From: an uncultured cyanobacterium
GTDB lineage: Bacteria; Cyanobacteriota; Cyanobacteriia; Cyanobacteriales; Nostocaceae
Assembly: GCA_963706595.1 (NCBI GenBank)
Contig: OY970166.1
Span: 2,976,001-3,040,000 of the forward strand
Direction of reading: 5' to 3'
DNA: 64,000 nt
Shown: positions 25,124 through 43,211 of the stretch, piece after piece
Layout of the letters: each line of letters starts with the position of its first letter
Position numbering within the stretch: position 1 is the stretch's first letter
Made by a program: the position numbers and the translations under genes
Notes under the pieces: model-generated
The model's input: the letters and a program-made list of their open reading frames with translations, nothing else
Told to the model about the DNA's origin: nothing
Databases searched by the model: none

Positions 25124-26358
25124 TTAGTTGCCATTATTTAAAGCATAAGTATCTTCAGCCCGGCCTAAAGCAAAGCGCAAGGAGTTGCTGAGGTCATGGC
25201 TGGACTGGGTGAGAAAGATGATAATCGCCAGAAAGGTTAAACCAGCACCATAACCAAACATATTGCGGTAGCCGACTTGTTCGGCGATGGAACCGAGAAC
25301 TGGCCAGCGATCGCAATGCCAATATCTAATCCCACCATAGACACGCCAAAGATTCGCCCTCGTTCATGAGGGTGGGCGCGGTCGGTCATCATTGCGGCCA
25401 TCATCGGAATTGCGGTTCCAGAAGCCGCACCTTCGACAAATGCTGATAGTAAGAACATCGGGGCGCTGTTGGCTTGCCATATACCTACCATCGCTAAGGT
25501 AAAGGCAATCAAGCTGAGGGTGATAAATAAACCTCTGCCATAGCGGTCAGAAGCCCGACCAATAAACAACCTGACATTAAAACTAGCGATCGCTGCTACT
25601 GTGTAAAACAGTCCTGGATTCAAATCTATATTAGTGGATTTGATAAATAAGGGGACAAAGGTATGCAAAGTCCCTAAAGCCACACCAATTAACAACATGA
25701 CAATTGCGGGAATCCGCACGCGGGGACTAAATAACAGTTTCCAAAATTGGTTGTCAGTGGGGCGGCTGTGGGGCGGATCATCAACAGGCGGATTGACAAT
25801 AGGTATTATACATAGCATTCCTATAAAACCCAAAGCCGCAGATAAAATAAATAAAGGGGTATAACCAGCTGCGGCTTGTAAATATCCCCCCAAGGCTGGA
25901 CCAATAGCCACACCAATGGGATTTACCAAACTCATGTAGCCAATAACTTCACCACGATTTTTAGCCGGGGCTAAATCTCCCACCAATGCCATGTAAGCAG
26001 TAGCAAAAGCCGCAATACTGATGCCGTGAAAGGCACGTAACACCATTAATGGCATAAGTGAGGTGGTGAAGATGTAACCTAGAGGTGCGATCGCAGCTGC
26101 TGACATTCCAATCAGCATCACAATCTTACGACCCCGCCGATCTGCTAAATTGCTACACCAAGGGCGAAATAATAACATCCCGATGGCAAAACTGCCCATT
26201 ACAATGCCAATCTGTTGACTAGTTGCGCCTAAATCTTCGATATACAGGGGTAACGTGGGCAATAACGAGGCAATGCTAGACCAGAATAATAAACCTGCTG
26301 TAAATAACACCAGCAGGTTACGTCGTAGTTTAGCGTCCAATGTATGAAGAACTTTCAA
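25124..26358 (-). CDS. MFS transporter, with a 1-nt deletion frameshift near 25302
   Basis: LADRRGRK and ASDRYGR motifs; restoring one base gives GPVLGSIAEQVGYRNMFG...RFALGRAEDTYALNNGN*; span 1235 nt. Confidence 0.85.
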
Positions 26359-31231: not shown

Positions 31232-31558
31232 TTAGGGTGAAATTTTTTCATCTTGGTTTTTACTCCGGAATCTTGATATAGTATTGAGGTCATCTTCTTC
31301 CTGCTTTAGTACATAGTACAGTTCAAAATTATGTTGAAGATTGAGCCAAAACTCAGAACTATTTCCCAAAAACTTAGATAGACGTAATGCAGTACTTGGG
31401 GTTACACCACGCTTCCCATTCACTAGTTCATTAATTCGTTGGTAGGGAACATGAATTGCTTGTGCAAGTTCGGTTTGTGATATCCGCATTGGTTCTAAAA
31501 AGTCCTTTAGCAGAATTTCTCCTGGATGTGTGGGAATCCGATTTTTTGGGGTTCTCAT
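31232..31558 (-). CDS. higA: HigA-family antitoxin
   Basis: PTHPGEIL, HTH, TALRLS, FWLNLQ. Confidence 0.9.
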   Translation of the reverse strand: MRTPKNRIPTHPGEILLKDFLEPMRISQTELAQAIHVPYQRINELVNGKRGVTPSTALRLSKFLGNSSEFWLNLQHNFELYYVLKQEEDDLNTISRFRSKNQDEKISP

Positions 31559-31572
31559 ATCTCTATTACTTC

Positions 31573-31866
31573 TTAATGATAATCCACTATTTCAACAAGA
31601 GCAGGTCCTTCTGGTGTCCATGCAAAACAAACTCTATATTTGTCATTAATGCGAATGCTGTAATAACCTTTTTTATCTCCTTTTAGTGCTTCTAACTTAT
31701 TTCCTGGTGGTACTTTCATATCATCTATGCAAAAAGCCGCATTTAATTGGTCTAATTTTCTCTGTGCAATTTCCCAAAGATGAGTGGGGCAATTCTTCCG
31801 AGCATCTTTTGAATCGTTCCCATCGAAAATATCTTCAGTTCCTTTATCTTTAAATGATAATATCAT
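31573..31866 (-). CDS. higB: HigB (RelE/ParE-like) toxin
   Basis: MILSFKDK, PPGNKLEALKGD, SIRIND, EIVDYH; toxin-first order. Confidence 0.9.
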   Translation of the reverse strand: MILSFKDKGTEDIFDGNDSKDARKNCPTHLWEIAQRKLDQLNAAFCIDDMKVPPGNKLEALKGDKKGYYSIRINDKYRVCFAWTPEGPALVEIVDYH

Positions 31867-31921
31867 TTTAGCATGATAACACGGGTGATATGCTAAGATA
31901 TCATAATTATCAATTTAATTT

Positions 31922-32060
31922 GGGTTAGAAAATATCGGCTGGGTCGGCTGAGTTTAATTTTCGCATCAAACCTCACCCCAACCCTCTCCTTAGTAAGGAG
32001 AGGGGGCAGGAATCAGGGTTAAAAAATATCGGCTGGGTCGGCTGAGTTTAATTTTCGCAT
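31922..32060. repeat. 45-bp direct duplication of the devC 3' end around a hairpin element
   Basis: 31922-31966 and 32016-32060 differ at one base. Confidence 0.9.
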
Positions 32061-33176
32061 GGCGATCGCACCGGAAATTAAACACATGATAATTGTTAAA
32101 ATTAGAACTAAAATTATTCTGTCAGGTGTCATAAATAGTGGTAACTTGGTGACATTGCGGGTAAAAGCATACATCACAAAGGAAACAAAGCCACCAGGAA
32201 TAAAACCGCAAATAGCTAATATTAAAGCCTCTTGAAATACAACCAATAATAAATAAGTATTACGATAACCCATGGCCTTAAGTGTGGCATATTCCGGCAA
32301 GTGATCCATGACATCACTGTAAATAATTTGATAAACAATAATTACACCCACTAAAAAGCCGATGGTGACACCCAAGGAAAAGATAAAACCAATCGCGCCG
32401 TTTTCTTGCCAATATTTCTTTTCAAAATCAATAAATTCTTGACGGGTAAAAACTTGCACATCATCATTCAAGTAAGATTGTAATGCTTTGGCGACTAAAT
32501 CAGCATCACTACCCGGCTTGAGATTAATTAAACCTAAATTAACTTGACCTGGTTGTTGTCCTGAAAAAATCCGCAAATAGTTTTGATCACTTGTGATCAC
32601 ACTACCATTAGCAACAAAAGAAGCGCCAACTTCGTATAAACCGCCAATTTTTACTTTACGTCCTTGCAGTTCTGTGGTAATAGATTTACCCTGAGAAATT
32701 TGGGCGATCGCCTGTTCATATTTCCCACTAGAATTGCGGTCAAATAACAGCGTATTGGGATATTTAATCTGATCTAATTTTTGATTAACTGCTGGTAAAT
32801 TGAACGCAGGTTTTTCAGGATTAAAGCCAATTACCAAAATAGATTCATCCAACTTCGTTTGGGGACTTTTCCAAACACCCAAGCGGACATATAAAGGATT
32901 AACAGACTCAACCTCAGACAAATTAGCAGCTTGAAACAACCGCCGACGCGGAAAACTACTGAGAAGCCCCAAATTTTGGGCTTGACGACTCACTAACACC
33001 ACATCAGCTTGTAAAAGTTCATGAAAGCGAGTATTACTATCATATAAAGCCGACTGAAAGCCCAACTGCATTAACATCAAAAAATCAGCAAAAGTGATTC
33101 CACAAAGAGCAACTAAAAACCGCCCTTTTTGCTTCATTAATTGCCGCCAAGCCAAAGGAATTTTACGCTTAAACAT
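32019..33176 (-). CDS. devC: DevC-family ABC exporter permease
   Basis: IPLAW.QL, QLGFQSALY, EYATLKAMGY, ADPADIF. Confidence 0.9.
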   Translation of the reverse strand: MFKRKIPLAWRQLMKQKGRFLVALCGITFADFLMLMQLGFQSALYDSNTRFHELLQADVVLVSRQAQNLGLLSSFPRRRLFQAANLSEVESVNPLYVRLGVWKSPQTKLDESILVIGFNPEKPAFNLPAVNQKLDQIKYPNTLLFDRNSSGKYEQAIAQISQGKSITTELQGRKVKIGGLYEVGASFVANGSVITSDQNYLRIFSGQQPGQVNLGLINLKPGSDADLVAKALQSYLNDDVQVFTRQEFIDFEKKYWQENGAIGFIFSLGVTIGFLVGVIIVYQIIYSDVMDHLPEYATLKAMGYRNTYLLLVVFQEALILAICGFIPGGFVSFVMYAFTRNVTKLPLFMTPDRIILVLILTIIMCLISGAIAMRKLNSADPADIF

Positions 33177-33225
33177 AAGGATAATAACTAATGACCAATG
33201 ATTTACCCTGAGCGTAGCCGAAGGG

Positions 33226-34440
33226 CTAAGGACTAATGACTATTTCAACATTCACCTGAAGATTAGTAAAATTAGCCACTTGCTGACTAGAAGCTTCATC
33301 TAAACGAATTTTGGCTTCAATTACTCTCGCATCTGTAGCTGCGGTGGGGTCACTATCTAACACATCTTTCTTCGCCACTTTTAAACCAATACTATCCACT
33401 CTTCCGCTTAATTCACCTGTAAAAGCATTACTAGGACTGGTAATATTAGCAGTTTGACCAGGGCGAATCTTGCCAATATCACTTTCATAAATTTCCGCGA
33501 TCGCATACATTTGATCAGTTTCCCCCAGTTCCACAATTCCCTCCTCACCGATGGTTTCACCGGGACGAGCTTGAACCCGCAGAATTTGACCTGCTTGGGG
33601 AGCGCGAATGTATGCAACATCCAGTTCAACTTGCATTTTTTCCACAGTGGCGATCGCACTATCCACTTCTGCTTGTGCTATAGCTACATCTGTGGGACGC
33701 ACCTCCGATGTTTGCTGTAAGGTGGCTTTGGCTTCTTGAATTTGGGCGGTGAGAGTGCGTTGAGTTCTGCCTAAACTGGCTTTAGCACCATTTAATTCCG
33801 CTTGGGCGGTGCTGACGGTTAATCTGCGAGTATCTAAAGCTGAAGCCGCGATCGCACCTTCCTTGTAAAGACTTTCATAGCGGCGAAATTCCATCTCTGC
33901 ATTTTGTAACTCAGCTTCCAGACGAGCATTTGTAGCTTGCTGGGTTGGGATTTCTCCCTCTAACTGTGCTTGCAGATTTCTGACAGTGGCTTCTCTCGCG
34001 GAGATTTCACCTTGTTTTGCACCGGCTTTCACCTGATTAAGACGTGAAATTGCTACTTGGACTTGTTGCTGTGCTTCCTTGAGATTAGCTTGTAGGCGAT
34101 CGCGATTATCCAAAATAGCAATCACCTCACCCGCGCTCACTTGCTTACCTTCCTCAACCAACAATTGAGCCACACGACTACCACCACTAGGATCAGTAGG
34201 AGCCGAAATTCTAATTACCTCACCGGCTGGTGACAATCGTCCCAGCGCATTCACCTTTGGAATTACTGGCGGACTAACCTGAGTTGACACCACTGGAGTT
34301 GTTTGATTAGTTGTGGGACGGGTTACATAGACTACACCCGCCCCCATGGCCATCACAGAAGTAATACCTAAAGCGACTAACCAACGCAAATTGGGCGCAA
34401 ACAAAGACGACTTTCTAATTTCTTCAGAATTTCGTAACAT
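33226..34440 (-). CDS. devB: DevB-family ABC exporter membrane fusion protein
   Basis: ALGRLSPAGEVI, AGAKQGEI, AEIYESDI, DARVIE, TNLQV.V. Confidence 0.9.
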   Translation of the reverse strand: MLRNSEEIRKSSLFAPNLRWLVALGITSVMAMGAGVVYVTRPTTNQTTPVVSTQVSPPVIPKVNALGRLSPAGEVIRISAPTDPSGGSRVAQLLVEEGKQVSAGEVIAILDNRDRLQANLKEAQQQVQVAISRLNQVKAGAKQGEISAREATVRNLQAQLEGEIPTQQATNARLEAELQNAEMEFRRYESLYKEGAIAASALDTRRLTVSTAQAELNGAKASLGRTQRTLTAQIQEAKATLQQTSEVRPTDVAIAQAEVDSAIATVEKMQVELDVAYIRAPQAGQILRVQARPGETIGEEGIVELGETDQMYAIAEIYESDIGKIRPGQTANITSPSNAFTGELSGRVDSIGLKVAKKDVLDSDPTAATDARVIEAKIRLDEASSQQVANFTNLQVNVEIVISP

Positions 34441-34471
34441 TCAATAGTTCCTTAAATAGCAGGTTAAAATA

Positions 34472-35916
34472 TTAAATTCCAGTCCCCCTCCTCGCTTGCG
34501 GGGAGGGGCTAGGGGTGGGGTTCCTATTCGCCCCTGTTTCTGCGAGTTCTTCATACTTAAAGAAACCAGGATTTAGAATTCCACAAGGGTCATATTTCCG
34601 TTTCATATTATTGACAGTAGACCAGTAATTTCCGAATTGCGATCGCCATCTTGGCAAATCAAAATCTGCCCAAGTCGCCATATATCTTTTACCACCCATT
34701 TTCAAACCCAAATCAGTCAGTAAATTTAACTGTTCTAGCACAGGTTCAACCTGAGATTTAGGAATAGTCGGATACATTCCCAAACCGATAATTAAATCAT
34801 CATCAGGTAAAGGAAACATAGGCATTTTATGCTTACCAGAATTGAGACAAAAAGAACCCACAGGAACAGTGCGGAAATCAACAAACCCTGGTAAACGCTG
34901 GAGAGCAATATCAATAAATTCTTTTGCTCTAGACCCTGGTAACAGTACATCTATCCAAGCATTAGCAGTATTGACAGGATGAGGAAGTTGTCCTAAAGGT
35001 TGAATGAACTGCTCAAAAGTCAAATCTTCTGTATGAATATGACGATAAAAATTTAAACCAGCAAGCAATTCTGCATCATTTATCTCATTTACAGAATCAA
35101 CTTCCACAGTAACTTGCATCCTATAAAACCATTGAATTAACGGTTTCATCTGATTTTCTTTCCTACTTATGCCTTGTAAGCAGGGTGAAAATAAAGATAC
35201 TAAACCATCTATCCGACCTTCTGAAACCAGACGACGTGCATCAGATAAAAGCTGATCTAAATCGTCATAGCAAAGAAAATAACTGCGAGTGTAAGGGCGA
35301 TATTTTCTCAAGCGATTTTTGACTTTAGTAATAATACCAAACTGACCATAACCACAAAGAACGTGATTAAAAAGTTCGCTATTTTCTTCTGGCGTACACC
35401 AAACAATATCACCACTCCCAGTAACAACTTCTAAACCCAAACAATTATCAGCTTGAGAACCGTAACGAAAAGAACTTAAACCCAACCCAGCCGCAGAGAG
35501 AGTTCCCCCAAAGTCACTTCAAAGTTATTAGTCAGAACAGGCGGAATTACACCATGAGGTATAGCAGCATCAACGATTTGCTTCCAAGTCACACCAGGAT
35601 CAGCTTGAAACCAAAGTTCATTAGGACGAAATTCATCAATTTGATTAAGACTCCTCATATCTAAAAGAATGCCATCTTGATTCAAAGATTGACCACTTAA
35701 AGAATGTCCCGCAGCCCGTGAAGAAATTGTTAAACCTTGTTTAGCAGCATATTTAATTGCTGCTGCAATATCACTGGAATTTTGGGGACGAATCACAACT
35801 TGAGGTTGTCTTTTAACAATATTCCCAAAATCCTGAGAAACTGCTTCTAACTCTGATTCCTTATTACTAATTTCCCCAGAAACAATCTGTTTTAAATCGG
35901 TTATAATCTTGTTCAT
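34472..35916 (-). CDS. FAD-binding oxidoreductase (VAO/cytokinin-dehydrogenase-like), split by a 1-nt deletion at 35505-35509
   Basis: RAAGHSLSGQS; adding one G restores VTLGGTLSAAGLG; GYGQFGIIT; YDP.GILNPG; span 1445 nt. Confidence 0.85.
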
Positions 35917-36085
35917 TTTTTTTATTGTAATTAAGATTTTAATCTAACCACAGAGACGCAGAGTACACAGAGGAATAAAGAACGAGCATCTCAATGATAA
36001 AACCCTCTTATACCCTCTTCCCTTGGCGTTCTTTGCGTCTTGGCGGTATGCGCTGCGCGCACGCTACGCGAACGTTTCTCCAAAA

Positions 36086-36736
36086 TTAATTAAAAACCCG
36101 CATTTTCAGCATCTTAAAACCAACCTTAAACAAACTAGGAATCAATCCCATAAAAGAAAAAACACGAGATATCACCTGAAAAAGATTATTTTGAGTATCT
36201 ATCTTAGCCCCCAGCAAATTATCTGCATTCCTTTCATACTTAAATACACAAACACAATCACCCTCAGCTTGTTTACTCAAAATAGCCGCCTTTATTCCCG
36301 GAAAAGCCCTTCTAGTAGCTTCTTGTTCCATCTCACAAAATACACGACAAGGACTATCAAAACCGTATTCTTTAGCGATAGATAAAACAGGACAAACCCG
36401 TTGAATTTCTAATGCTGCATCTGTGCCATGTTGAGAAACATCTACCACATCCATCACAAAGCCCATCAAACCCAATAACGGTGCAGCTTGGGTGAAACCT
36501 TTGGCTAAAGTATTATGATCGATGAAAGTACCCATCAACGCCTTTTGTTGTTCAGGATATTTTTCCATCATCTGTTCAAAAGCAGCAGCTTCTCCTTTTT
36601 CTGCAACCAGATTTTTGTATTTTTGAAATCTCTTCCTAAACAAATTCACGGCTTTAGATTCATCTAGATTGATGATATCTTCCATGCGGAGATTCCCTGT
36701 AAACAGTTCTTTTTCTATGCTCATTTTTTTGTCCAT
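36086..36736 (-). CDS. ATC-hydrolase/V4R-like Cys-rich protein, TolI-like
   Basis: CP-x13-C-x3-C...GD.VC.F pattern; located next to a HemF paralog. Confidence 0.65.
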   Translation of the reverse strand: MDKKMSIEKELFTGNLRMEDIINLDESKAVNLFRKRFQKYKNLVAEKGEAAAFEQMMEKYPEQQKALMGTFIDHNTLAKGFTQAAPLLGLMGFVMDVVDVSQHGTDAALEIQRVCPVLSIAKEYGFDSPCRVFCEMEQEATRRAFPGIKAAILSKQAEGDCVCVFKYERNADNLLGAKIDTQNNLFQVISRVFSFMGLIPSLFKVGFKMLKMRVFN

Positions 36737-36839
36737 ACTATTAAGATGGAATAACGAACCGCCAAGCCGCCAAGAACGCCAAGTTAGAGAGGGAATATTG
36801 ATTAGTTACAAGTTGATAAGGATTGGTGTAAATAGTGTT

Positions 36840-37121
36840 TTAGATACTTGAGTAGATGCAAAGGCAAATTATCCAAGCTAGTACATATTTACAAGCATTA
36901 AGAAAGGATAATGCAATGTCTATTTCTAGTTCGCTGGTAATATATGTATTGTGTGTTGTTTTATTCAAAGTGATATTTTTTGACATTACCTGTAGTGGCT
37001 GTTTGTGGGTTTGGGTGCGAGTGTTGAATAAGGTTTTAGCTATTGATTGTCTGATGTTGACGGATTTGGGTTTTCTCATTGCAGCATCGCCTTTATTAAA
37101 GTGTCTATCAGTTGCAATCAA
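36840..37121 (-). CDS. Small hypothetical protein with hydrophobic C-terminus
   Basis: Fills the gap after the hemF-like gene, co-oriented; no recognisable motif. Confidence 0.4.
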   Translation of the reverse strand: MIATDRHFNKGDAAMRKPKSVNIRQSIAKTLFNTRTQTHKQPLQVMSKNITLNKTTHNTYITSELEIDIALSFLNACKYVLAWIICLCIYSSI

Positions 37122-37127
37122 AAAATT

Positions 37128-38132
37128 TTATAGCCACTTACGAGGATTTCTTAAAACTTCTTTCAACATGGCTTCTTTACTACCAGCAATAGGTTGATCA
37201 TCGTATTCCCAGTTAGCAGCAGGAGGCATACAATTAAACACACTTTGCTGCTTCACCATACCACTGGCTAAACCAAAACGAATGCCGCGATCGCACGATA
37301 AAATAAACTCCACATATCGCCCACGCACTAAATGTTGCCAATACTTATTTGCTTCTGTAAAAGACATATTTTTACGTCTTTCCAAAATAGGCATATAAGC
37401 AGGGAGAAAAGCATTAGCACAATTAGTCACTAATGACAGCAGCTTTTCGGGATTTTCGTGATTTAAATTGTCAAAGAAAATACCACCTACACCTCGATGT
37501 TCGCCACGATGTGGGATGTGGAAATATTCATCACAGGCATTTTTAAAGCGGGGGTAATAAGCAGAACCATACTGATCACAAACATCTTTATGCACCTGAT
37601 GAAAATGAACTGCATCTTCCTCAAAAAGATATGCTGGTGTTAAATCAGCGCCACCTCCGAACCACCAATACACAGGTTGGTTAGCATTACGAATCTCGAA
37701 ATAGCGATAGTTAACATGAGCCGTGGGAGCCATCGGGTTATGAGGATGGATAACAAAGCTAGAACCTGTAGCGAAAAAGCGGTTCCCTTTGCTAGTAGTC
37801 ATTTTATCGGCTGCATTTGTAGCGAGAGCGCCTGATTTCTCAAAGGACATTCCCGGAGGTAGCTCACCTTCTATGGCTACATAATTAACTCCGACCTTTT
37901 CCAACACATTACCATTGTGCAGAACCCGGTCAATATATATAGCGTCTTCACTACTTTCACCAACCGTCCAGAGTCCCTTGCGATCGCGATTCCAGGACTG
38001 TTCAGAGAACTTTTTACCATCTAAAGCTTCCAGCGCTTGGCAAGTATTATCAAACATTTGTCTGAAAAACTTGTCGATTACCCCACGCATGATTGGTTGT
38101 TGAATCAATGATTTTTCGAGGACATGGTTCAT
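37128..38132 (-). CDS. hemF: Divergent oxygen-dependent coproporphyrinogen III oxidase paralog (HemF2-like)
   Basis: EKVGVN, HPHNP..PT.H.NYRYF, WWFGGGADLTP, RGVGGIFFD, RGRYVEF...DRG..FGL. Confidence 0.85.
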   Translation of the reverse strand: MNHVLEKSLIQQPIMRGVIDKFFRQMFDNTCQALEALDGKKFSEQSWNRDRKGLWTVGESSEDAIYIDRVLHNGNVLEKVGVNYVAIEGELPPGMSFEKSGALATNAADKMTTSKGNRFFATGSSFVIHPHNPMAPTAHVNYRYFEIRNANQPVYWWFGGGADLTPAYLFEEDAVHFHQVHKDVCDQYGSAYYPRFKNACDEYFHIPHRGEHRGVGGIFFDNLNHENPEKLLSLVTNCANAFLPAYMPILERRKNMSFTEANKYWQHLVRGRYVEFILSCDRGIRFGLASGMVKQQSVFNCMPPAANWEYDDQPIAGSKEAMLKEVLRNPRKWL

Positions 38133-38280
38133 GATGATCTCCCCACTATTGATGAAGTACGTCTATATTTACCAAAAATCATGAATGCTACAAAACTGAT
38201 TCAAAACCGTAAGCCAGCACCCAAAACAAATTCGTTTGATCTGTGGTTCCTGATCTCTTTCCTTTCTTCACCCCAAAGCA

Positions 38281-39315
38281 TTACTTCACATCAACAATTT
38301 GTTGCTGTTTATCCTGACTATATGCAGAAAATTCAGCCTGAGACTTTTGCAGAAACTGACGAAAAGTAATATCTAAAGCATCAGCCGCAACATGAAGTTC
38401 CTCTGATATTTGCGGCATTGATTGAGAGTTTAAAGTGGAAACTACTATTGTGTCTTCTTGGGCTAGTTTGTGGTCAATTTTTCTAAAGAAACCATCTAAC
38501 CAAGGGAAGGGTAAAACATTGCGATATAACACGCGTTTGACACGAGTCCTATTTTGATCAATCGGTAGGTGAGCAACTAAAATGCCAAACTTAATATCAA
38601 ATCTACTACCACGACCGACACTAATTTCTGCCAGAGTAACATTAGGCAAATATAAAGTCAATTTGGTTTTCAATTCTGGTCGTCCACCGAGTAAAAAGTT
38701 CAAGAAACTTTTCGAGTTACCTAAAGATTCATAATTAACTTTAGCAACTGCACCCCAATCATATTTATCAACTTGATATTTAATAGTTGTATCGATGGGG
38801 ATTCTCTGACCAAACGATTTTTTATGGACTGCAATCACATGGGTAAAATCAAGATTAGCTTCCATGAGACGAGCATAGTTAGCATTATCTATACTGTCAT
38901 CATACACAGGACGCATAGTCGAGACCATGTATTCGGGAAAAGTTGGTAGAGGAGGATGTTCGGCTTCTGGTAAGTCCCCATAAAACAGCCAGACAAAACC
39001 ATATTTTTCTTGAACTGGGTAGTTATCAACAAGAGCTTTTTTAGGAATAGCAACTTCAGTCCCATTAGAAGGAATTTCAACACATTGCCCATCAGCTTGA
39101 AACTTCCATCCATGATAAGGACAACGAAGACAATCTTTTTCAATCCAACCCAGAGACAAAGCAGCACCACGATGGGGACATTGATCATTCAAAGCTACTA
39201 TTTGTTTTTGAGAATTGCGATAAAGCACAAATCTCTGATTAAACATCAAAACTTGCTTGGGCTGATTAGTAACTGCCGAGCTAAATTCACAAGCATACCA
39301 AAAATTTTTCAACAT
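38281..39315 (-). CDS. Rieske non-heme iron oxygenase
   Basis: CPH-x16-CPYH Rieske ligands; DFTHVIAVH iron site; QED. Confidence 0.9.
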   Translation of the reverse strand: MLKNFWYACEFSSAVTNQPKQVLMFNQRFVLYRNSQKQIVALNDQCPHRGAALSLGWIEKDCLRCPYHGWKFQADGQCVEIPSNGTEVAIPKKALVDNYPVQEKYGFVWLFYGDLPEAEHPPLPTFPEYMVSTMRPVYDDSIDNANYARLMEANLDFTHVIAVHKKSFGQRIPIDTTIKYQVDKYDWGAVAKVNYESLGNSKSFLNFLLGGRPELKTKLTLYLPNVTLAEISVGRGSRFDIKFGILVAHLPIDQNRTRVKRVLYRNVLPFPWLDGFFRKIDHKLAQEDTIVVSTLNSQSMPQISEELHVAADALDITFRQFLQKSQAEFSAYSQDKQQQIVDVK

Positions 39316-39370
39316 ATTTGTCTCCTATCCTTTTTAGATATCTTGACCTCAAAGCCGAAAAAAATCTCAT

Positions 39371-40438
39371 CTAATTCATCAATGAAGTGTAAATAGACTG
39401 TGATTGATGGTAATGAGAATTATCTAATTCATATTGCTCAGAATTTAAACCCCATCCCATAGTTAAATATTTTTGGCGAAGCTGACGATAAGCCAGAGTC
39501 AAAGCATCAGCAGGAACATGAACTTCAGTTAATAAATTATCAGGAATTAACTGGGGAGTTTGTGACTCAGTTACTACCTTATCTTCTAAACCAACTTTAT
39601 GATGAAAATTGATAAATAATCTGTCTGCCCAAGAATAGGTAAAGAAATTACGCAGTTGAATGCGTTTACTAATGGTTGTGTTCTCATCAACAGGAACATG
39701 AATAGCATAGTTGATAATTTTGCCCCGACCAAAGTCACTTTCAATTTTAGTTATGTTTGGTAAATAAAAGGTAGTTGTGGCATTTAGTTGTGTTTGTTTG
39801 GGACGAAAAAAAGATTTAAAAATGCCATTTTTGGGCTGAGTGTAATTCTTGTAGATAATTTTCGTACTTATGCCCCAAGCTTCATCTTTAACTACATAGT
39901 CTGCTACTTTTGGATCTTGTGCAAATCCTGCACCAAAAGAATTAGCATGGACTGCATAAAGATGGGCAGGATCAAGGGCATTTTCTATGACACGAGTGTA
40001 ATTAGTTTGCATTCCATATTCTATATAAATAGGATGCATTTTCGGGTCTTCGTATTCTGGAAATGGAGGAATTGGTGGCCGTTCTGATTCTGGCAATTCT
40101 CCATAAAATAGCCAGATAAAACCATATTTCTCTTGTACAGGATAACTATTTACATTAGCTCTTTTCGGAATGGGTATACCAACTTCATTAGAAGGAATTT
40201 GCACACATTTTCCATCAGCTTGAAATTTCCATCCATGATAAGGACAACGAATACAGTTGTCTTCTAGCCAGCCCATAGATAATGCTGCACCGCGATGAGA
40301 ACACTGGTCTTTCAATGCAACTACTTGACCTTGAGAATTGCGATAGAGGACAAACTTCTGATTTAACATCGCAATTTGCTTCGGCTTCTTAGTAATAGCT
40401 GAACTAAATTCACAAGCGTACCAGAAGTTTTTTAGCAT
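39371..40438 (-). CDS. Rieske non-heme iron oxygenase
   Basis: CSH-x16-CPYH; ENALDPAHLYAVH; EDKVVTESQ. Confidence 0.9.
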   Translation of the reverse strand: MLKNFWYACEFSSAITKKPKQIAMLNQKFVLYRNSQGQVVALKDQCSHRGAALSMGWLEDNCIRCPYHGWKFQADGKCVQIPSNEVGIPIPKRANVNSYPVQEKYGFIWLFYGELPESERPPIPPFPEYEDPKMHPIYIEYGMQTNYTRVIENALDPAHLYAVHANSFGAGFAQDPKVADYVVKDEAWGISTKIIYKNYTQPKNGIFKSFFRPKQTQLNATTTFYLPNITKIESDFGRGKIINYAIHVPVDENTTISKRIQLRNFFTYSWADRLFINFHHKVGLEDKVVTESQTPQLIPDNLLTEVHVPADALTLAYRQLRQKYLTMGWGLNSEQYELDNSHYHQSQSIYTSLMN

Positions 40439-40796
40439 CCCTAATTTCCTAAGCTTTTAACGAAAGTTCTTATTTATACTAAAATGCGGTCGAAAAGACG
40501 GAGTTTCTGAGGCTGTGGCAAAATCTAACTGATCTTTTGGCTTGTAGTGAGTGCTTTAACGCCCAAAAAATTTTTCCCCGTATTTTTTGTACTTTTTTGA
40601 ACAACAATCATTTGGTTTTGTTTTTGATGAAAATATTTATTCCAGGATAAATGAGCCAAATTTAGAGAAATTTAGCTGCTGTTGGGATTTTGATATGTGT
40701 TTTCGCAATTTGACACTTTCTGGCTTCTCTTGCCTTTGTTTTGTGTCACCCTTTGGATAGAGTTACTTCTCTTTCCGGGGGTATAGGTGATACTAT

Positions 40797-40859
40797 ACCA
40801 ATGCACTGGTGCATTAGTCAACCAATGAATAATTTTACCTGATGAACCATTACACCAAT
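40797..40859. promoter_or_regulatory. Candidate operator region between Rieske operon and RHH gene
   Basis: Palindrome AATGCAC-TG-GTGCATT (40800-40815) and ACCAAT at 40797, 40821, 40854. Confidence 0.35.
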
Positions 40860-40894
40860 AAACTAGTGAATAAGTTTATTCGTTGGAGTATAGT

Positions 40895-41104
40895 GTGGCA
40901 CAAGGAGAAGCTTCGATTCGGGTTTACTTACCCCCTGACATCAAAGACAGGTTTAAAACAATTTGCTTTTTTAAGGGATTGAATATGTCTGACGTTTCGG
41001 CTGAACTTATTGAAGACTGGTTAGCTAAAAATGACATGGAACTGCCAAATTCTCAGAAAACCGCATCTGCGCCCGCTATTAAAAAGGGTGATATGTCAGC
41101 ATGA
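40895..41104 (+). CDS. Ribbon-helix-helix (CopG/ParG-like) DNA-binding protein
   Basis: SIRVYLP..IK.RFK..C...G.NMSDV..ELIEDWL; GGAG before GTG 40895. Confidence 0.75.
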   Translation: MAQGEASIRVYLPPDIKDRFKTICFFKGLNMSDVSAELIEDWLAKNDMELPNSQKTASAPAIKKGDMSA

Positions 41105-41610: not shown

Positions 41611-43211
41611 CTAGCTATATCCATCCCAGGCTAGAGGAAAGGTGTAATCTGAGAACAAGGGAAAATCTGGGTTTTCCTTACGGGTTTCTTCGTCGAGGAC
41701 TTTTACTACTTTGTGATAAATGTCTTCTGCTTGTTGTGGGGAATCGCCAATGCTGGTTAATCCCAATTTGCCAAACTGGGAAAGACAACCCATGAGATGA
41801 AAAACTGTGCCTGTTTCTGTACAGCTATCAAAGTGCAGTCGGTGATGGGCGATAATATCCATTAAATCGTTGGGTAATAATCCCCGATAGCGGTCTTTTT
41901 GCAGGTTGTCGGTGGCTATATAGTATTTGGGTCGTCCTTGCTGACTGTAAAATAACCCGGTGGAAAGGTCGTAGCGTCCATTTGTTAACAATTTCAGGGT
42001 CATGAACGGATGCGTAGTTCCACCTTTACGCAAGTTAATTTCAATGGCTTGAATGTCCCACTGGCCGTTTCCTTGGTCTACGGTGATAAAGTCTACGCCA
42101 AATCTTTCAACTGCACCTTTTTCTGAGAGTTTTCTGCCGATTTGTAAACCGCATTGCTGTAATTGCAGCCGATAGCGGGAATCAGCCGGAAATCTACAAC
42201 CCAGATAAATTTGTCCGTCTGGTCCGCCGAGTATTTGGTCATGGGTGGAGACAATTTCGACTTCACCTGTGGGTGTGATGCGTCCTTGGACACTAGGCGA
42301 TCGCTTGATTTCTCCTTCGACAAATGCTTCGGCGATCGCACCTAACTCTGTAACCGGTTAGCAAAATTTCCCCAAGTCTCGTGTGTGGATTGAAAGCGCA
42401 TGGTGGGGAAGCGATCGCTAATTGCTGCTACTGTTTGGCTATGAGACACTTTCCCCGGTGCTAAATCCATAATTGGTCTCAAATCTAGCAGTGCATTTCC
42501 TTCTCCAGAAATGCCTTCATTGAGTTTGACAACTATTCTTTGTAATGTCGGTTGGCGTTCCCATAATTTACCCGCAACTTCTGCCAAATCTTGCTGATTA
42601 CAGACTTTTTCGCTGCCATCTGGTAGAGGAACTCCACTTTGGGCAAAGATTTGGCGACTACCGCTTTTTGTCCCCCAAATCTGTAAATTTGGTGCAACAG
42701 CATACAATGGCACATTTAATTCTAGAGATAATTCGGCTTCTAAAAATGTGGAATTGTAGCAAGTCATAAATGATTTTTCTAGTCTCAAGGCTTGGCGAAT
42801 TCGCTCTAGTAGCCGAGGACGTTCTAAAATCTTAGCCGTTAGGGGTCTAAGGGAAGAATCATAAGTGGACAGTAGCAGCAAGCGATTACGCGCATGGGAA
42901 AAGGGAATTCCCGGTAAAAGTTGCAAATAGTAATCAATCACACTCGGATGTAAAGGCATTGATGTGACGTAAATCAACCGAGTCCGGGGGTTTCGCAAGC
43001 GCATTAAAGAGAATAATAGTCTTTCTTCATAATGCTCACAACCTTCGATTTTATGCAGTTCATGCTGGTCGATGCTGAGGGAGGGAATAATTAAAATATC
43101 CGCCTCACCATAGTCAAATAGCTCAATGGTCGGCCAGCGATCGCATAAAGTTAACTGAAGATGGCGAAACTTTTCAACTTTGTCTAATTCTGAAATATTC
43201 AGCATCTCCAT
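41611..43211 (-). CDS. PGM1-related ATP-grasp peptide ligase, split by a 1-nt deletion near 42354
   Basis: HYEERLLF, KLNEGISGEGNA; continues in another frame AEAFVEG...SPSVQG...STHDQILGG...EINLRKGGTTHP; span 1601 nt. Confidence 0.82.

Follow-up and report, generated by a model that had tools for sequence, protein, structure and literature searches.

Can a cyanobacterium make a pigment of the tolyporphin family with neither the P450s nor the sugar genes of the published clusters beside its own, and, if so, which pigment would it be? This question is raised by a run of genes at positions 32019 to 41104 of a 64,000-nucleotide stretch (the window) of contig OY970166.1, from assembly GCA_963706595.1 of an uncultured Nostocaceae cyanobacterium, the closest protein relatives of the cluster being found in records named Nodularia. 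Tolyporphins have one known producer, and eight strains carry candidate clusters (PMC8401325, PMC10459692). The gene run proposed in an initial annotation of the window was borne out throughout, each gene being found in its place, and the cluster is a real, conserved and probably regulated variant of the known pathway that has apparently gone undescribed so far. Its compact order (rhh, Rieske A, Rieske B, hemF2, a small open reading frame (ORF), tolI, tolJ, devB, devC, where rhh encodes a ribbon-helix-helix, RHH, regulator) is seen again in 25 other genomes, with three of these loci (L011, L016 and L026) truncated at contig ends, and all 8 additional regions that were fetched show it too, which rules out a chance neighbourhood.

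At the core of the cluster stand two enzymes, HemF2 and TolI, whose chemistry, together with that of the P450 TolH, is reportedly due to Ushimaru et al. 2023. The suspected homology to TolI held: the protein encoded at 36086..36736 (minus strand, as are all genes of the cluster except the regulator gene), an orthologue of this vinyl-cleaving Fe-S protein, is 60% identical (123 of 204 residues, E 6e-97) to MBE9181928 of Oculatella LEGE 06141, which figures as TolI in Table S1 of PMC8401325, 60% identical to MBD2726596, another TolI of that table, and 60-61% identical to both HT-58-2 copies. The Oculatella TolI has been reported to strip four vinyl groups (PMC10459692). The match of the window protein to the ATC_hydrolase family (PF14196, E 1e-4) lies below the cut-off; all 70 tol-type sequences share Cys115, Cys130, Cys134 and Cys163, and the protein groups with the tol sequences (support 100) and not with 10 remoter homologues found in other contexts (here and below, supports come from quick IQ-TREE or FastTree runs, midpoint-rooted). 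No solved-structure relative of TolI was found by sequence, and the resemblance of its AlphaFold model (pLDDT 73) to H-NOX/V4R/BcsD/TRAPP-type folds (best Z 9.6, rmsd 3.5, 134 aligned) is suggestive and was not used as evidence. Shorter TolI-like paralogues (45-55% identical, with the four cysteines kept and the C-terminal tail missing; L134:7708-8268, L075 and L078) occur in HT-58-2 and in anaerobic bacteria, next to genes resembling those of hydrogenases or NADH dehydrogenases (one neighbour family is confirmed by Pfam), hinting at the origin of TolI. In yet another locus (L071:7482-8781), a tandem tolI pair follows hemF2, with no tolJ in the stretch examined.

The hemF gene at 37128..38132 (PF01218, E 3e-113), flagged as divergent in the initial annotation, is of the HemF2 type by identity, diagnostic columns and tree. 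Its product is 70.7% identical to HemF2 of biosynthetic gene cluster 2 (BGC-2) of HT-58-2, 56.6% to that of BGC-1 and 39.7% to HemF1; the other hemF of the source genome is 78% identical to HemF1. Of the 39 diagnostic columns, in which six canonical HemF proteins are uniform and the two HT-58-2 HemF2 have a different residue in common, the window protein follows HemF2 at 29, the canonical proteins at 3 and neither group at 7; the C-terminal HemF2 signature stretch matches as well. The idea that this gene is the sole housekeeping hemF, which would have undermined the proposal, is rejected by the presence of a second, canonical hemF elsewhere in 26 of the 26 genomes with a compact cluster. By orthology to assayed enzymes, whose activities are given in the reviews PMC10548856 and PMC10459692, HemF2 and then TolI would probably turn protoporphyrinogen IX into tolyporphyrinogen P.

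What could then act on such a scaffold? Upstream of hemF2 lie two genes for Rieske oxygenases, A (39371..40438) and B (38281..39315), each with the domains PF00355 and PF19112 and with the Rieske and mononuclear-iron motifs; the two proteins are 50% identical to each other and fall in two old paralogue clades. They had been regarded as the distinguishing novelty of the cluster, a view that does not stand: since A is orthologous to HcaE-a (62% to ARV59275) and B to HcaE-b (69% to ARV59276), and duplicated hcaE genes were already reported in BGC-2, Oculatella and FACHB-892, their relevance being called unknown (PMC8401325), the pair is not a new addition. Both proteins share domain architecture and metal-binding motifs with VanA_C-type Rieske monooxygenases (the SxtT family, NdmA and SdmA), but lie far under the cut-offs of these families (for SdmA, 121 bits versus 600). 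An ESM Atlas search with the Rieske returned generic VanA-type clusters only, and the C-terminal domain of pheophorbide a oxygenase (PaO) was found in neither protein by Pfam at E<=0.01, VanA_C being present instead. PaO and chlorophyllide a oxygenase (CAO) are Rieske enzymes that work on tetrapyrroles, in methyl oxidation and ring opening. A Rieske gene is present in 61 of 69 tol loci, namely the window and 68 cyanobacterial loci among the best 80 of 112 relatives of a TolI profile in the species-genome collection; of the other 8, a P450 is found in 4, 3 are truncated at contig ends and one (L032) has neither enzyme. In a compact locus, Rieske A (L010:6351-7403) groups with BGC-2-type sequences outside its own clade, possibly through replacement or conversion. 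A sister module, made of a Rieske gene, a gene for a six-helix-type membrane protein (no Pfam match) and another Rieske gene, was seen without hemF2 or tolI in 7 of 10 regions fetched (L164, L165, L167-L171), often adjoined by an RTX-repeat protein.

The compact genomes comprise Nodularia, Anabaenopsis, Umezakia, Chrysosporum, Cyanocohniella, Trichormus, Komarekiella, Halotia, Atlanticothrix, Dendronalium, Amazonocrinis and Nostoc-named records, and the 26 members form a single clade for HemF2 (SH-aLRT 99 in a quick tree, on a long branch of its own) and for TolI (98), as they do, with support 100, for Rieske B (25 rows), Rieske A (24 rows, L010 outside) and DevC (24 rows). Two more loci (L033 and L045) likewise have no hem, P450 or TolD genes, but show another gene order. 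The absences stated in the initial annotation proved correct. Early hem genes (hemABCE, hemF1) were found within 10 kb neither in the window nor in the complete compact loci, hemA, hemL and hemF being located elsewhere in the source genome. As to the glycosyltransferase and the P450s, TolD has no match in the source genome at E<=1e-10 and no orthologue in any of the 26 compact genomes (best 24-36%), versus 6 of 14 comparison genomes (49-76%, the query itself excluded). The best TolH matches in compact genomes reach 39-48% (none at threshold in two genomes), and because this is close to the 49-51% of BGC-2-type P450s, a P450 tree was built, in which the 14 P450s of tol clusters group together (100); outside this clade fall the best matches of 22 of the 26 compact genomes and all three source-genome P450s tested, two further best matches having dropped out at the motif filter. 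TolA/TolB sugar-nucleotide genes were not found within the cluster, the stretch to which that search was limited. Across 389 genomes of the family, TolI matches occur in 72, of which 71 are of tol type and the last is a 45% paralogue, and 9 of 10 other genomes of the same genus are among these; Rieske matches occur in 74, including 66 of the 71 tol-type genomes, and TolD in 6. These counts derive from 4-5 scored candidates per genome, so that weak paralogues may escape, and from kin that are not independent. From these figures, the tol pathway is common and mostly sugar-free. In a second widespread tol type, found in Nostoc (L057, L059-L070 and L074), a single Rieske gene and hem genes are joined by a divergent gene of the heme-oxygenase-like di-iron kind, with no P450 or TolD in range; one such record is titled as a plasmid.

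Are these genes still functional? The seven large genes have median dN/dS values of 0.09-0.20 (for each gene, 15-16 pairs against L008, from 17 chosen loci), approximate because dS is about 0.9, and are therefore under purifying selection. In the window, tolJ (34472..35916), a gene for an FAD oxidoreductase whose pieces are 55-74% identical to HT-58-2 TolJ, is split into 146 and 337 aa by the loss of one base in a G run at 35505-35509; in the related compact loci it is intact in 25 of 25, and in the further regions in 8 of 8 (33/33 in all). In the source genome, 3 of 17 genes in this neighbourhood are split, as are 7 of 151 in a genome-wide sample, versus 1 of 125 in the reverse comparison. 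The tolJ frameshift is probably an assembly error, a true break in this strain being rather unlikely. Contigs from four public sequencing runs over the locus belong to relatives only, and the frameshift site is not among the indels printed; two of the runs, from RNA libraries, cover most cluster genes (again as contigs of relatives), which gives no measure of transcription level. Among the other genes split by one-base losses with respect to close relatives are a PGM1/ATP-grasp gene (41611-43211, near 42354) and a gene of the major facilitator superfamily (MFS; 25127-26358, near 25307), and a P450 at 5110356-5111763 of the source genome (G000:C1) is split as well. Regarding its family, intact TolJ has its best PDB matches among covalent flavoproteins of the cytokinin dehydrogenase type (E 1e-47), with which it has the GHS form of the GH[ST] motif in common, although the match is a distant one.

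The cluster also appears to carry its own control. The divergent gene at 40883..41104 (plus strand) encodes a ParG-like RHH regulator (PF09274, E 4e-4) that probably starts at GTG 40895, judging from a GGAG 6 nt upstream; it was called in 22 of 25 related compact loci. Between it and the Rieske genes lies a predicted sigma70-type promoter at 40792..40821 on the minus strand (TTGACT-18-TATAGT, with an extended -10), the top site of a scan that as a whole gave no excess of sites over shuffles; the promoter block is conserved across compact loci. A 22-bp palindromic motif occurs twice, at 40797..40818 (over the spacer of the predicted promoter) and at 40854..40875, and this pair, with its 57-bp spacing, is found in 25 of 25 upstream regions examined; within the source genome, these two sites score 33 and 29, and the next one, at 15, does not exceed the shuffled maximum of 16. 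We infer from this arrangement a self-contained operon that the RHH protein would repress via the putative twin operators, and that would therefore be near-silent until some signal arrives. Upstream of the cluster, a match to the NtcA box consensus was found neither in the window nor in 22 of the 24 regions examined elsewhere. The counterpart of the cluster in N. spumigena CCY9414 is NSP_RS06540-06570, matched by gene order, flanks and a named orthologue table, and in N2-fixing growth its five enzyme genes make up 1-7 x 10^-4 % of transcripts (supplement of PMC9846622). Omission of nitrate raises tolyporphins in HT-58-2; the low transcripts of CCY9414 under N2-fixing growth mean that it does not switch the cluster on there. 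This near-silence is compatible with repression and likewise with little or no product. The supplements of PMC3610870 have no transcription start site row for the cluster, and among the rows of PMC5853447 matched by four terms, none puts a cluster gene in the differential-expression file.

Two further elements deserve attention. The small ORF between tolI and hemF2 (36840..37121) encodes a membrane peptide (79 aa from ATG 37079) with a variable basic N-terminus, a conserved acidic-hydrophobic motif (E-x-D-I-x-L-x-C...[RK]Y) and, by hydropathy, one C-terminal hydrophobic helix. A profile from 59 such peptides matches 68 of the 69 cyanobacterial loci (59 of these being its seeds), the weakest with E 0.016 (L047); BGC-1 is the exception in position, its gene being relocated near devC (L088, E 3e-15, a non-seed), and in BGC-2 the peptide is the hypothetical protein ARV59270. 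The tol genes listed in PMC8401325 do not include it; it may anchor the enzymes at the membrane. At the other end of the cluster lie devB (33226..34440, TIGR02971) and devC (32019..33176, TIGR01185), for a membrane fusion protein and an ABC permease, both above cut-off. The compact DevC clade is separate from that of HT-58-2 (47% to BGC-2 DevC); a heterocyst glycolipid exporter was considered and rejected, as neither devA nor hgl genes lie alongside and the DevC clade is a separate one. Between tolJ and devB, an RNase H-like gene (PF13456) is inserted in six compact loci (L021, L026, L027, L079, L131 and L133). A HigB/HigA-type toxin-antitoxin pair follows devC in the window (31232-32060), and next to it 50 nt from the 3' end of devC are duplicated (31917-31966 and 32011-32060); the pair occupies the same site in L127 and L130 and is absent from L008, L126 and L128.

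These elements can be assembled into a proposed pathway. The housekeeping HemF, whose gene is present, would make protoporphyrinogen IX by the established route; the cluster HemF2 would decarboxylate the two remaining propionates to give a tetravinyl porphyrinogen, from which TolI would take off the four vinyls as acetaldehyde, yielding tolyporphyrinogen P. The Rieske pair could replace the TolG/TolH P450s and oxygenate the free beta-pyrrole positions, and TolJ could oxidise what results, so that the pigment would be a hydroxy-oxo chlorin or dioxobacteriochlorin that carries no sugar and is comparable to tolyporphins Q and J (P + O2 and P + 2 O2). The distribution of Rieske genes and P450s over the 69 loci, given above, speaks for such a replacement. 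DevBC with a borrowed DevA may export the hydrophobic pigment to the envelope, the RHH protein presumably acting as repressor at the twin operators. Tolyporphin J is C24H22N4O4, i.e., P plus two O2, in line with two Rieske paralogues. Since the product could be tolyporphin P, Q or J, all of them known and free of sugar, the initial claim of a different tetrapyrrole was overstated; the compact cluster probably makes a sugar-free pigment not yet isolated from Nodularia and relatives. As for the whole chain, from protoporphyrinogen IX to an exported sugar-free hydroxy-oxo tetrapyrrole by a compact, vertically kept tolyporphin branch, we consider its chance to be somewhat below even.

Several points weigh against that chain. 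A product or enzyme assay is on record for neither any compact cluster nor any HcaE; TolJ and HemF2 alone yielded no new product in E. coli (PMC10459692), and three strains with fuller clusters have no detectable tolyporphins (PMC8401325). To these must be added the very low transcription of the cluster in N2-fixing N. spumigena CCY9414, the split tolJ and the missing devA of the window cluster, neither of which the initial annotation mentions (the source genome has six DevA genes over the cut-off elsewhere), as well as the Rieske enzymes themselves, whose nearest characterised relatives (SxtT-type, E 1e-32, NdmA and the sterol demethylase SdmA) are C-H or methyl monooxygenases and not pyrrole dioxygenases, and which coexist with a TolH-type P450 in 10 loci, an argument against the two being simple substitutes. 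This last pair of observations, the second suggesting a separate job, is what makes a different use of the Rieske pair worth considering: after the same first steps, it would oxidise methyls (to hydroxymethyl, then to formyl with TolJ) or cleave the macrocycle at a meso bridge, which would yield a sugar-free chromophore of a new kind. CAO and PaO are examples of Rieske enzymes that, between them, perform both reactions on tetrapyrroles, and assays tuned to 676 nm dioxobacteriochlorins would overlook such products. Nevertheless, the absence of the PaO domain speaks against it, as does HT-58-2, which holds the Rieske pair in BGC-2 and yet has 18 known tolyporphins that are dioxobacteriochlorins, oxochlorins and one porphyrin (PMC10459692), and we regard this route as unlikely, if a serious contender. 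A sister Rieske pair (45-57% identical) also exists without hemF2 or tolI, and the Rieske subfamily is therefore not tetrapyrrole-specific, which brings in the thought that the Rieskes act on another substrate or merely co-travel and that the pathway goes no further than tolyporphyrinogen P or tolyporphin P, serving as a valve through which surplus protoporphyrinogen is disposed of or exported. An attached exporter, the lack of dedicated hem genes to increase flux and the low basal transcription (in N2-fixing CCY9414 the cluster hemF lies 5-26-fold under the housekeeping hemF, and 0 of 7 cluster genes are flagged as P-regulated, hence no response to P limitation, according to the PMC9846622 supplement) would suit such a valve. 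However, the Rieskes head the operon under the same predicted promoter, their trees track the tolI/hemF2 clades, they accompany the tol genes in 66 of 71 genomes, and a product of this class is unlikely to be harmless because tolyporphin A is photoactive; a mere valve thus seems improbable.

Two other readings question the scaffold and the cluster itself. The HemF2 of the window is only 57% identical to the BGC-1 copy, and the HT-58-2 HemF2 that was assayed may be either of the two copies; as the window protein also departs at 10 of the 39 diagnostic columns and its clade sits on its own long branch, HemF2 and TolI of this clade might differ in specificity (decarboxylating or de-vinylating only in part, or using another porphyrinogen), the scaffold then being something other than tolyporphyrinogen P. 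Against this, TolI keeps 60% identity to the assayed enzyme and all four cysteines, and HemF2 its C-terminal signature, which leaves a shift of this kind quite improbable. Finally, the cluster could be the decaying remnant of a larger tolyporphin cluster, making no product today: hem, P450 and sugar genes are lost, devA too in 12 of 24 complete compact loci (it is present in the other 12), tolJ is frameshifted in the source genome and transcription is near-silent. Against decay speak the purifying selection on the cluster genes, a tolJ that is intact in all 33 relatives, operator-like sites retained in 25 of 25 regions and the occurrence of split genes across the source genome, and we hold it to be very improbable. 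Returning to the preferred reading of a sugar-free tolyporphin branch, its compact cluster would reduce the questions about the roles of HcaE and TolJ, the induction signal and the purpose of the pigment to a set of five enzymes, a single peptide and a repressor with a putative operator. As it occurs in cultured, sequenced strains, it offers a simple system for two uncharacterised iron oxygenases, and a repressor knockout could account for cluster-bearing strains giving no pigment. A bolder possibility, which we rate as rather doubtful, is that the Rieske pair and TolJ carry out undescribed reactions on a side-chain-free porphyrinogen, whether oxidation of methyls, ring opening at a meso position or formation of oxo-chlorins by a non-heme route, enabling an undescribed, inducible and exported tetrapyrrole in nearly all Nodularia species and about 18% of the family's species. 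If this were true, a Baltic bloom former would be included, and the glycosylated tolyporphins would be a rare offshoot of a common Rieske-based pathway.

How does the compact cluster relate to those already known? In a search largely confined to journals open without subscription, with Ushimaru et al. 2023 (which may hold a neighbourhood survey) outside its scope, no published description of the compact form was found, nor did that search yield a paper on tolyporphin and Rieske enzymes or on a Nodularia coproporphyrinogen gene cluster; on tolyporphin and Nodularia together it gave general papers, and Nodularia goes unmentioned in a large tolyporphin review. Among the cluster features published by Jin et al. 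2021, the window has HemF2, TolI, TolJ (frameshifted here) and DevB/DevC at the cluster end, together with the duplicated hcaE Rieske genes of the BGC-2 subtype; clustered hem genes, TolD and the TolG/TolH P450s are missing, and because these three belong to the published definition, the window cluster is best described as a variant nearest to BGC-2. With the BGC-2, Oculatella LEGE 06141 and Nostoc FACHB-892 clusters (PMC8401325) it has the hemF2-small ORF-tolI-tolJ core order in common, and both hcaE Rieskes of BGC-2 are one-to-one orthologues of its own pair. Unlike the BGC-2-type clusters, it has no hemA/B/C/E, hemF1, P450, TolD, TolC or sugar genes, and it differs from them in the position of the Rieskes ahead of hemF2, in its own RHH gene with putative twin operators and in a DevC of another lineage. 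BGC-1 is more distant (HemF2 57%, TolI 60% and TolJ 55-60% identical to those of the window): alongside two P450s and a C-glycosyltransferase it contains deoxysugar genes as well as seven hem genes, and it lacks a Rieske, in contrast to the window, although the small membrane peptide is found in both, and devBC without devA is common to the window and the two HT-58-2 clusters.

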